Of a stretch of 4,835 nt of DNA, positions 2,986-4,835 are shown piece by piece (position 1 is the stretch's first letter; each line of letters starts with the position of its first letter). This DNA comes from a virus (taxonomy: Duplodnaviria; Heunggongvirae; Uroviricota; Caudoviricetes): IMG/VR virus record IMGVR_UViG_2671180283_000016; one strand, written 5' to 3'. The position numbers and the translations under genes were made by a program. The notes under the pieces were generated by a model. The model did not search any database. It was not told the DNA's origin and was given only the letters and a program-made list of their open reading frames with translations.

Positions 2986-3729
2986 ATGACACAGACTGAA
3001 TCAGCGATTCTGGCGCATGCCCGGCGGTGTGCGCCTGCGGAGTCGTGCGGCTTCGTGATAAGCACGCCGGAGGGGGAGCGGTATATCCCTTGTGTGAATA
3101 TTTCCGCAGAGCCGGAGGCGTATTTTCGTATCGCACCGGAAGACTGGCTGCGGGCAGAGATGCAGGGGGAGATTGTGGCACTGGTCCACAGTCATCCCGG
3201 TGGGCTGCCCTGGCTGAGCGAGGCTGACCGGCGGCTGCAGATAAAAAGTGCACTGTCCTGGTGGCTGGTCTGCCGGGGGGAAATTCACAAATTCCGCTGC
3301 GTGCCGCACCTGACCGGGCGTCGTTTTGAGCACGGGGTGACGGACTGTTACACCCTGTTCCGGGATGCCTACCATCTGGCGGGGATAACGCTGCCGGATT
3401 TTGTGCGTGAGGATGACTGGTGGCGCAACGGCCAGAACCTGTACCTGGACAACCTGGCGGAAAACGGCTTTTGCCGGGTGTCTCCGTCCTCTGCACAGGC
3501 AGGCGATATCCTGCTGTGCTGCTTTGGCGCATCGGTGCCGAATCATGCCGCCATTTACTGTGGCAACGGTGAACTGCTTCACCATCTGCCTGAACAACTG
3601 AGTAAACGGGAGAGGTATTCTGAAAAATGGCAACGACGAACGCATTCTGTCTGGCGTCACCGCCACTGGTCCGCATCTGCCTTCACGGGGATTTACAACG
3701 ATTTGGCAGCCGCCTCAGCCTGTATGTGA
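2986..3729 (+). CDS. K: Tail tip assembly protein K (lambda gpK-like), 247 aa, JAMM/MPN + NlpC/P60 two-domain protein
   Basis: ATG at 2986 lies 10 nt after the L stop and gives an N-terminus MTQTESAILAHARR matching lambda K-region translation as recalled. JAMM motif H68-S-H70-x7-S78-x2-D81 (HSHPGGLPWLSEAD, nt 3187-3228). NlpC/P60-like catalytic Cys121 (GVTDCYTLF) and downstream His (PNHAAIYCG). The track's 334-aa version starts at a TTG (2725) inside L in another frame and is rejected. Confidence 0.86.
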   Translation: MTQTESAILAHARRCAPAESCGFVISTPEGERYIPCVNISAEPEAYFRIAPEDWLRAEMQGEIVALVHSHPGGLPWLSEADRRLQIKSALSWWLVCRGEIHKFRCVPHLTGRRFEHGVTDCYTLFRDAYHLAGITLPDFVREDDWWRNGQNLYLDNLAENGFCRVSPSSAQAGDILLCCFGASVPNHAAIYCGNGELLHHLPEQLSKRERYSEKWQRRTHSVWRHRHWSASAFTGIYNDLAAASACM

Positions 3730-4307
3730 ACACGGCAGCGGAAGCCATCCGGGCGCTGTCGTTACAGGTGCCCGGATTCCGCCGTCAGATGAACGAAGGC
3801 TGGTACCAGATACGTATTGCCGGTGATGACACGGCACCGGAGGCGGTGTACGCCCGTCTTCACGAACAGCTGGGTGAGGGAACGGTCATCCACATTGTGC
3901 CGCGACTGGCCGGGGCCGGAAAGGGTGGACTGCAGATTGTGCTGGGGGCGGCAGCCATCGTGGGCTCTTTCTTCACGGCCGGGGCATCAATGGCGTTATG
4001 GGGTACAGCCCTGAGTGCCGGCGGTTTTTCTGCCACCACGATGCTGTTTTCACTTGGAGCCAGCATGATTCTGGGTGGTGTGGCCCAGATGCTGGCCCCG
4101 AAGGCAAAAACACCGGATTACCGCGCAACGGATAACGGCAGACAGAACACGTATTTTTCGTCACTGGACAACATGATTGCCCAGGGTAACCCGATGCCGG
4201 TGCCTTACGGGGAAATGCTGGTTGGCTCCCGCCGTATATCCCAGGACATCAGTACCCGTGATGAAGGCGGGGGCGGAAAGGTCGTGGTTATCGGGCGGCA
4301 GGGGTAA
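3627..4307 (+). CDS. I: Tail assembly protein I (lambda gpI-like), 226 aa
   Basis: ATG at 3627 with GGGAGAGG about 11 nt upstream. It overlaps the 3' end of K by 103 nt in a different frame, the same arrangement as lambda K/I. Size is close to lambda gpI (223 aa). The C-terminal half has Gly/Ala-rich hydrophobic stretches. Stop TAA at 4305-4307. Confidence 0.9.
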   Translation: MATTNAFCLASPPLVRICLHGDLQRFGSRLSLYVNTAAEAIRALSLQVPGFRRQMNEGWYQIRIAGDDTAPEAVYARLHEQLGEGTVIHIVPRLAGAGKGGLQIVLGAAAIVGSFFTAGASMALWGTALSAGGFSATTMLFSLGASMILGGVAQMLAPKAKTPDYRATDNGRQNTYFSSLDNMIAQGNPMPVPYGEMLVGSRRISQDISTRDEGGGGKVVVIGRQG

Positions 4308-4347
4308 AAAGAATAAAAAAATCCCGCAGAGTTGCGGAACTGCGGGA
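4306..4347 (-). terminator. Rho-independent terminator oriented for minus-strand transcription
   Basis: An 8-bp GC-rich stem (4322-4329 TCCCGCAG with 4340-4347 CTGCGGGA) and 10-nt loop. On the minus strand it is followed immediately by TTTTTTTATTCTTTTT (complement of 4306-4321). On the plus strand there is no T-tract after the hairpin, so it is directional. Confidence 0.65.
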
Positions 4348-4406
4348 GCGTTACGAAGATTAAGTGTAAGGAATTATTCTTATGTCACGACAAAAAACAC
4401 TAACGC
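4314..4406 (-). ncRNA. Candidate small RNA (~90 nt) bounded by the minus-strand promoter and intrinsic terminator; unnamed
   Basis: Inferred only from the promoter at 4413-4440 and terminator at 4306-4347 on the same strand. No ATG-initiated ORF in the predicted transcript. The segment is AT-rich (my hand count about 36% GC for 4348-4478, against visibly GC-richer flanking genes). Ends are approximate. Confidence 0.3.
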
Positions 4407-4412
4407 AGCGAA

Positions 4413-4440
4413 ATTATACGCGCCACAGTCAGTTTGTGAA
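4413..4440 (-). promoter_or_regulatory. Candidate sigma70-type promoter on the minus strand
   Basis: Minus-strand -10 is a perfect TATAAT (complement of 4413-4418 ATTATA). A -35-like TTCACA (complement of 4435-4440, 5/6 match to TTGACA) lies 16 bp upstream. Predicted start is near 4406, pointing towards the minus-strand terminator at 4306-4347. Confidence 0.45.
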
Positions 4441-4477
4441 AATGTGAAGATATTCAGAAGTTTTATTCAGTGATGAT

Positions 4478-4510
4478 ACAGGCATCCTCAGGGATGCCTG
4501 TTGTTTTTGT
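4478..4510 (+). terminator. Rho-independent terminator-like hairpin on the plus strand, 32 bp upstream of the J start
   Basis: A 10-bp perfect stem (4478-4487 ACAGGCATCC with 4492-4501 GGATGCCTGT) and 4-nt loop TCAG, followed by TGTTTTTGTG (4502-4510). There is no matching T-tract on the other strand. Confidence 0.55.
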
Positions 4511-4531
4511 GCGTAACAGTTATCACAGTAA

Positions 4532-4539
4532 AGGGTGAG
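4532..4539 (+). promoter_or_regulatory. Shine-Dalgarno-like site for J
   Basis: AGGGTGAG lies 3-10 nt upstream of the ATG at 4543. Confidence 0.5.
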
Positions 4540-4542
4540 ACA

Positions 4543-4835
4543 ATGGGCAAAGGTGGCGGCAAGGCGCACACACCGCGCGAGGCGAAGGACAATCTCAAAT
4601 CCACGCAGATGATGAGTGTGATTGATGCGATTGGTGAGGGACCGATAGAAGGCCCGGTGAAGGGGCTGCAGAGTATCCTGGTGAACAAAACCCCGCTGAC
4701 GGACACGGACGGCAATCCTGTGATACACGGTGTGACCGCGGTCTGGCGCGCCGGGGAGCAGGAGCAGACACCACCGGAAGGCTTTGAGTCCTCCGGAGCT
4801 GAAACCGGACTGGGCGTGGAAGTGACGAAGGCAAA
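4543..4835 (+). CDS. J: Central tail fibre / host specificity protein J (lambda gpJ-like), N-terminal 97 codons; 3' end lies outside the window
   Basis: ATG at 4543 preceded by AGGGTGAG (4532-4539). Translation MGKGGGKAHTPREAKDNLKSTQMMSVIDAIGEGPIEGPV...AGEQEQTPPEGFESSG closely matches the lambda gpJ N-terminus as recalled. The frame stays open to the window end. Not in the ORF track because there is no stop in the window. Confidence 0.92.
   Translation, partial: MGKGGGKAHTPREAKDNLKSTQMMSVIDAIGEGPIEGPVKGLQSILVNKTPLTDTDGNPVIHGVTAVWRAGEQEQTPPEGFESSGAETGLGVEVTKA

Follow-up and report, generated by a model that had tools for sequence, protein, structure and literature searches.

The window, that is, the whole stretch of 4,835 nucleotides analyzed here, holds tail genes only, and Pfam searches of its open reading frames matched the tape measure, M, L, K and Lambda_tail_I families. 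Gene I for tail assembly protein I lies at 3627-4307 on the plus strand in the list of open reading frames (Lambda_tail_I, E = 6e-15). It is followed on the same strand by the 5' part of gene J for the tail tip and host specificity protein (4543-4835), which starts with the ATG at 4543-4545 and continues past the end of the window. J was recognized from the annotation of relatives and from a tblastn match to the N-terminus of lambda J, to which its own N-terminus is ~77% identical. The two genes are separated by a gap of 235 nt (4308-4542), which is 60 nt in lambda and which, by the list of open reading frames, is the only real spacer in this part of the tail operon. Matches to the locus were found in 1383 of 5426 complete E. 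coli genomes, with up to eight copies per genome, and its nearest kin are Stx-converting phages and the lambda-like prophages of E. coli, EHEC and EPEC included.

Within the gap, a stem-loop on the strand that encodes I and J lies at 4478-4501 (ACAGGCATCC-TCAG-GGATGCCTGT) and consists of 10 Watson-Crick pairs, six of them G-C, around a loop of 4 nt. The T-rich tract TGTTTTTGTG adjoins its 3' side at 4502-4511, also on the plus strand, and 31 nt separate this tract from the J start codon. These 31 nt (4512-4542, plus strand) form the J leader, which carries the Shine-Dalgarno-like GGGTGAG and is one of three interchangeable types. The perfect 10-bp stem with tetraloop and T-rich tail, which the first-pass annotation had described between I and J on the coding strand, is thus present at 4478-4511. 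As RNA, the tract reads UGUUUUUGUG, with 7 U in 10 nt and 6 in the first 8, a G interrupting it at position 2. This segment combines the two hallmarks of a Rho-independent terminator, a stable G+C-rich stem-loop and a U-rich tract directly 3' of it. RNA folding of 4470-4515 (46 nt) gave -18.9 kcal/mol (z = -3.4, with 2 of 200 shuffled sequences as stable). The bare 24-nt hairpin gave -17.8 kcal/mol, and a d'Aubenton-Carafa-style score with modern energies was +11, where values above 0 predict a terminator. By the free-energy calculation that had been proposed as a check, the stem is stable. Of 1500 first-order Markov simulations of the window, 5 (about 0.3%) contained, on one strand or the other, a perfect stem of 10 bp or more whose next 8 bases included 5 or more T. 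A looser terminator scan of the window ranked the 4478-4501 hairpin first among 8 sites (expected number, 3.4 +/- 2.2). We conclude that 4478-4511 is probably an intrinsic terminator on the tail-operon strand. The opposite reading, a terminator of the minus strand, was rejected because the minus strand has no U-tract there and, in several variants, pairs less well. Another terminator-like hairpin on the plus strand was seen at 2138-2167 within tail gene M (GGCATGGT-GGTT-ACCGTGCC, then TTTTTGTGGC).

The hairpin does not stand in ordinary spacer sequence. In relatives from Providencia, Proteus, Morganella and Xenorhabdus, whose I proteins are 44-50% identical, the I-J gap is 2-14 nt long and has no hairpin. 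The GC content falls to 0.405 at 4300-4499 versus 0.57-0.63 in I and 0.61 in J. Because of these short gaps, that of lambda included, and of the drop in GC, we regard the additional DNA as an insert. By definition, a moron has a promoter and a terminator of its own (the Juhala/Hendrix definition, summarized in PMC3594210). Like morons, the gap is extra DNA compared with relatives and deviates in base composition, and it has promoter-like and terminator-like sites of its own on the minus strand; expression from prophages is known from its homologues PasB and EcOnc22. The I-J gap is, by these marks, a low-GC, moron-like insert carrying a predicted PasB small RNA (sRNA) gene on the opposite strand. 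The first-pass annotation had missed this context, which makes the gap an apparent sRNA-bearing insert and not a plain spacer. Inserts are recurrent at this junction, namely sodC, IS elements, PasB and an extra gene in phage Flotzy. Some relatives show rearrangements here (L004, 236-1449; L167; L146; L220), including an IS3-family element that replaces I and PasB and an IS in the module of the class-B gaps described below. A 21-codon open reading frame on the plus strand (4383-4448, MSRQKTLTQRNYTRHSQFVKM), antisense to PasB and preceded by AAGGA, was dismissed as spurious and is probably no gene, since its ATG is absent in most relatives and its frame is not conserved.

PasB was reported in EPEC E2348/69 as an 83-nt RNA from the minus strand of NC_011601.1 (1466343 to 1466261) in prophage PP6, between E2348C_1436 and E2348C_1437 (Pearl Mizrahi et al., 2021, PMC8550237 Table S6). 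This locus is the I-J gap of that prophage and aligns with the window over its full length. The published annotation maps to 4315-4392 on the minus strand of the window, and the Northern probe for PasB, AATCCCGCAGTGATCGCGGAGCT (PMC8550237 Table S6), maps to 4320-4341. The intrinsic terminator of PasB, CCCGCAG...CUGCGGG followed by U7, occupies 4313-4345 on the minus strand, ends 8 nt from the stop codon of I and is conserved at 0.94. PasB depends strongly on Hfq, with a log2 fold change of -6.8 in the hfq mutant, and its level is higher in LB than in glucose-containing DMEM (PMC8550237). Among the rows listed for RIL-seq in EPEC, there are many PasB fragments, including those with ler, perB, galE and ftsZ.

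In EHEC Sakai, the Hfq-CRAC peaks EcOnc22, EcOnc23 and EcOnc24 were assigned to prophages Sp15, Sp14 and Sp11, respectively (Tree et al., 2014, PMC4104026 Table S2). EcOnc22 is ~85 nt long on Northern blot and is destabilized without Hfq (PMC4104026). Between 2.17 and 2.93 Mb, published NC_002695.1 coordinates (Tree 2014; Sy 2020) run some 128-137 nt below those of NC_002695.2. We therefore converted them with a shift of +128 to +137, calibrated on HnrS/EcOnc10 and on the published 3' end of StxS at tR'. Once shifted, each of the three peaks maps to an I-J gap, on the strand opposite the tail genes and on the RNA body beside the I stop codon. An apparent position of EcOnc22 over the reverse complement of the hairpin arises from uncorrected coordinates and was discarded, as the calibrated peak lies on the PasB body beside I. 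Because all of the shifted peaks and the PasB locus fall in homologous I-J gaps, PasB and EcOnc22-24 are, judged by locus and sequence, one family, and the window carries a predicted member running from about 4392 (or 4406) to 4315. This equivalence is stated in neither PMC8550237 nor PMC4104026. A scan of Rfam 15, from which PasB is absent, gave no match at E <= 1, either for the window or for the loci of E2348/69, Sp15 and class B. PasB and EcOnc22 have both been seen in lysogens by Northern blot and Hfq binding (PMC8550237, PMC4104026). The hairpin was also considered as the terminator of HnrS (EcOnc10-12), a 66-nt prophage sRNA with an intrinsic terminator, and this was rejected because HnrS sits between the lysis and terminase genes of Sp9, Sp10 and Sp12.

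The alignment of relatives gives some insights into how PasB may be transcribed. A -10 element of the form TAnnnT (TAGTGT here) at 4397-4402 on the minus strand is conserved in every variant group, and the published 5' end of PasB lies 7 nt downstream of it (4402 to 4397 in the window). This element would imply a PasB start near 4390, at most 1 nt from the published 5' end. Further upstream on the minus strand, 4413-4440 holds a near-consensus sigma-70 promoter-like site, TTCACA-16-TATAAT (11 of 12 positions), which is missing in several relatives. It may be a second, dispensable promoter, so that some copies may have two. A start from it would yield a PasB form of ~92 nt, extended by 14-16 nt beyond the published 5' end, and it is possible that the primary transcript starts at 4406 instead of ~4392. 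Next to it lies a CRP-like site, TGTGA-AGATAT-TCAGA, at 4443-4458 (one match against 0.14 expected by chance). Its half-sites are invariant across relatives, variation being confined to the center of the N6 spacer. With its own center at about -60.5 to -61.5 relative to the inferred PasB start, the site has class I spacing. These features suggest class I control of PasB by cAMP-CRP via this putative site, and the higher level of PasB in LB than in glucose-DMEM agrees weakly with such control. The breakpoint between two classes of gap (class A and class B, see below) falls at ~4466, just outside the expected CRP footprint. We found no mention of the CRP-like site or of the plus-strand hairpin in the published PasB work. 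A plus-strand promoter that depends on CRP, whether serving J or a short RNA, was considered and rejected, since on direct reading neither class I nor class II spacing yields an acceptable -10 element.

The most conserved stretch of the gap, 4438-4508 (0.95-0.98), comprises this region and the hairpin, with its peak at 4438-4477, and it raises the question of whether the hairpin is the terminator of a short plus-strand RNA of ~60 nt, which would start near 4450 and have its conserved 5' part in the block 4441-4477. The layout is indeed of the Hfq type, with a single-stranded conserved 5' part, a U-rich stretch and a terminator, and TGTGAAAAT at 4435-4443 resembles, on direct reading, an extended -10 element. 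However, conservation of this candidate -10 fails in the Sp15, L010 and L032 types, the promoter scan found no plus-strand promoter, and the CRP-like site for PasB accounts for the left part of the conserved block. Moreover, the Sakai Hfq-CRAC peak is listed solely on the opposite strand of these gaps, and among the RIL-seq rows listed for EPEC E2348/69 there is no fragment at 14664xx and there are many of PasB. We consider such an RNA very unlikely.

To describe the gap among relatives, 80 viral contigs were picked solely by their I protein (at least 96% identity) and, together with earlier loci, gave 34 distinct I-J gaps in three classes. Class A gaps (234-250 nt) always carry PasB and a hairpin of the window type, 41-51 nt before J. 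Class B gaps (337-344 nt), which are the commonest, carry PasB and then a different module from ~4466, whose hairpin CCCCGGTATC-TGCTG-GATACCGGGG has T-rich tails on both strands. Class C gaps (851-903 nt) hold a sodC gene on the minus strand, flanked by a PasB remnant and J, and have no terminator before J on the plus strand. The class-B gap, common in ExPEC prophages, is represented by L003 (1700-1806), where a hairpin of 10-13 bp takes the place of that of the window. About 40 bp upstream of this hairpin on the minus strand, on the J side, is a promoter-like TTGCCA-18-TATCCT, and the class-B gap may hold a second small minus-strand RNA beside PasB. In some prophages, the minus-strand sodC gene for Cu/Zn superoxide dismutase directly adjoins the 3' part of PasB and stands where the upstream region of PasB would be (L005, 1470-2320; L093; L094). 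Hairpin losses were also seen, that of the class-A left arm in L146 and a clean deletion of the class-B hairpin in L220.

Sampling a second time, with the conserved block on the left side of the hairpin as anchor, raised the count to 91 class-A copies, with 15 distinct hairpin variants. The hairpin is kept in all 91 copies and the T-tract in all variants. Of the pair cells in these variants, 98.7% are paired; shifting the partner by 1-3 columns lowers this to 35-49%. The pair 4485/4494 is C-G in eight variants, U-A in six and U·G in one; 4478/4501 and 4486/4493 vary to G·U only, and the sole type of mismatch is C·A at the loop-closing pair. Owing to the G·U wobbles, pairing is slightly better in an RNA of the plus strand, with 148 of 150 cells against 141 of 150 on the minus strand, and the T-tract is on the plus strand only. 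The terminator score is positive in 14 of the 15 variants, the remaining one having a poor tail (d = -8.9). Changes on both sides occur at one pair only and the sequences are close kin (89% mean identity); on a rough count, 4 of 5 stem substitutions preserve pairing, which has P of about 0.05 under neutrality. The covariation support for the stem thus appears real and is modest. In the unbiased class-A alignment, the stems are conserved at 0.92-0.94 versus 0.75 in the PasB body and a mean of 0.76 in the J leader, and over 19 distinct gaps the T-tract positions 4502-4508 are conserved at 0.98. Variants of this plus-strand hairpin are also present in E2348/69 and in Sakai, where the T-tract of the Sp15 copy lies at NC_002695.2 2902733-2902740 on the minus strand. 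Three unrelated J leaders start directly past the T-tract, and because of this the hairpin and its T-tract are taken to travel with the cassette and not with J. The hairpin is, from these mosaic boundaries, the apparent J-side boundary of the PasB cassette.

The conservation of the T-tract bears on another possible role, that of RNA stability or processing, in which the hairpin in the read-through late mRNA would block 3'-to-5' exonucleases and protect the upstream tail message after cleavage, or would mark a site of processing by which the level of J mRNA is set apart from that of the upstream genes. Such a role would fit a structure that forms in the plus-strand RNA, as the G·U variants favor, at the only real spacer of this stretch of the operon. 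The stretch of late mRNA to which PasB is perfectly complementary lies 70-160 nt upstream, and an RNase III site could arise there. On the other hand, a pure stability hairpin has no need of a T-tract, and one is kept here almost without change. The hairpin is also ~70 nt from any PasB duplex and so would not be a 5'-terminal stabilizer. These points, together with the T-tracts of the analogous elements described next, make a stability or processing role quite unlikely.

Hairpins just before J are found in other phages as well. In lambda (J02459, about 15464-15483), AAACCGCC-TGCG-GGCGGTTT is followed by TGTCATTTAT on the plus strand. Hairpins of this type have the loop T(G/C)CG and the tail TGTC(A/G)TTTAT, end their T-tract ~9 nt before the J ATG, and are conserved in Shigella, Escherichia and Citrobacter relatives with gaps of 59-71 nt. 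Phage mEp237 has AGGCCACC-TCAG-GGTGGCCT followed by TTTTTATGGG, with the end of the stem 16 nt before the J ATG. In Flotzy, AAAAAACCCAGC-TCAG-GCTGGGTTTTTT lies 12 nt before J and closes an extra plus-strand gene of 185 aa after I, and thus a pre-J hairpin can arrive as the terminator of an inserted gene. In our set of loci these hairpins are at L009 765-800 (lambda 15464-15499), L269 1296-1325 (mEp237) and L267 1892-1925 (Flotzy). In HK578, I and J overlap. Counting class A and class B, at least five unrelated terminator hairpins thus lie just upstream of J in E. coli temperate siphophages (lambda, mEp237, Flotzy, class A and class B). All five have a plus-strand terminator signal and T-tracts, and those of Flotzy and class B read as terminators on both strands. 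A full-text literature search for a lambda I-J terminator returned nothing relevant, which is weak evidence because older subscription papers were mostly outside its scope.

These comparisons bear on two opposite views of the hairpin. It may be a neutral relic, a terminator that an earlier insertion left behind at a permissive site, which is tolerated because Q-modified polymerase ignores it and which is biochemically still a terminator without a present role. The repeated inserts at the I-J junction, the orphan terminators that persist in lambda and mEp237, the hairpin losses in L220 and L146 and the lack of a hairpin in the sodC-type gaps would all be expected of a relic. Nevertheless, few parts of the gap are as well conserved as the stem and T-tract, most stem changes preserve pairing, and five unrelated hairpins that all give a plus-strand terminator signal are more than random relics predict. 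We therefore hold a pure relic to be unlikely. At the other extreme, a plus-strand terminator before J might be a selected trait, acquired convergently by E. coli temperate lambda-like siphophages as a checkpoint between the tail-assembly genes and J with the fiber and lysogenic-conversion genes downstream. We put this forward only tentatively, as a somewhat doubtful possibility. If such a checkpoint were selected, it could be an attenuator that sets the dosage of J or an insulator that silences J and the downstream cargo in lysogens, and the PasB cassette would have been built around it or have retained it.

The reading that we prefer, with moderate confidence, is that the hairpin is a Rho-independent terminator of the tail-operon strand that forms the J-side edge of the PasB cassette, stopping rightward transcription that is not antiterminated and letting Q-modified polymerase pass. 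Both terminators in the cassette would face outward, that of PasB beside I and the plus-strand hairpin beside J, so that ordinary RNA polymerase could enter neither I (antisense) nor J (sense) from the cassette. In the lysogen, a rightward transcript without Q modification would stop ~30-40 nt before the J start codon, whether it leaked from the tail genes or started within or upstream of the cassette. Read-through of terminators by Q-modified polymerase is established for the lytic growth of lambda. After induction, Q-modified polymerase from pR' would likewise ignore both terminators of the cassette, and J would be expressed from the late polycistronic mRNA. Such read-through is plausible here because relatives such as Sakai Sp15, which has the same hairpin, carry an annotated antiterminator Q. 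Points that weigh against this reading are the interruption of the U-tract, the poor tail of one variant, the thin covariation and the result of the promoter scan, which found no plus-strand promoter within the cassette whose transcripts would call for a stop. Termination, read-through and any benefit to fitness are what we infer from the structure, strand and context of the hairpin, and its retention could also be neutral, with Q making it harmless in lytic growth. Of the terminator proposed in the first-pass annotation, the sequence features on the late-operon strand stand, together with the keeping of stem and T-tract in relatives. Its role in gating J does not hold as a necessity, since the sodC-type gaps have no plus-strand terminator before J and the hairpin is not needed there for J expression. 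Term-seq data of Sakai have been deposited (GSE143631; PMC7547250).

Intra-operon terminators are recognized in lambdoid late operons, and their role is a published open question, between partial termination or attenuation and the stopping of non-antiterminated transcription (PMC8022706). Like the predicted late-operon terminator of phage L and P22-type phages (PMC8022706), the window element has the canonical form of hairpin plus T-tract and lies on the coding strand of an operon with a single Q-antiterminated promoter. On the other hand, it is placed at the I-J junction, is unrelated in sequence and is linked to an sRNA cassette, and its passage through mosaic exchange can be followed. The lambda hairpin has the same position and strand, but shares no sequence with it, has a shorter stem and sits in a 60-nt gap without PasB. 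Compared with moron terminators of the HK97 gene 15 type, the cassette is similarly extra, lower-GC DNA between conserved neighbors, with its own promoter and terminator and with cargo expressed from a repressed prophage (PasB, PMC8550237). However, its cargo is a non-coding sRNA antisense to the operon, and the hairpin is not the cargo's own terminator but a second, outward-facing one on the other strand. The PasB and EcOnc22-24 loci share with the window the I-J position, the sRNA terminator, the -10 element, the upstream block and variants of the plus-strand hairpin, though published work on them covers the sRNA only. The hairpin also resembles tR' of the Q system as an intrinsic terminator that is expected to be ignored by Q-modified polymerase. 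Unlike it, tR' is a regulatory target beside pR'/qut whose short product can be the sRNA StxS (PMC7547250); the window hairpin is roughly 20 kb downstream and has no known product.

The hairpin alone is a routine terminator, and its value is in the context. The I-J spacer of many EHEC, EPEC and ExPEC prophages would be a compact, insulated sRNA cassette, laid out as PasB terminator, PasB, promoter, CRP-like site and outward-facing terminator. PasB thereby gains a testable regulatory hypothesis, control by cAMP-CRP. Moreover, the recurrent unrelated terminators before J, that of lambda included, provide a concrete case for the role of intra-operon terminators in Q-antiterminated late operons.

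Finally, I-J sequence 100% identical to lambda was seen on short low-coverage contigs (L098-L113, L129, L130, L140), whose assemblies are labeled Neobacillus, Pseudomonas, Chromatium, Bradyrhizobium, Enterococcus and others. These contigs are almost certainly contamination with lambda DNA. A contig labeled Streptomyces flavalbus (L095) likewise carries an E. coli-type prophage tail segment.
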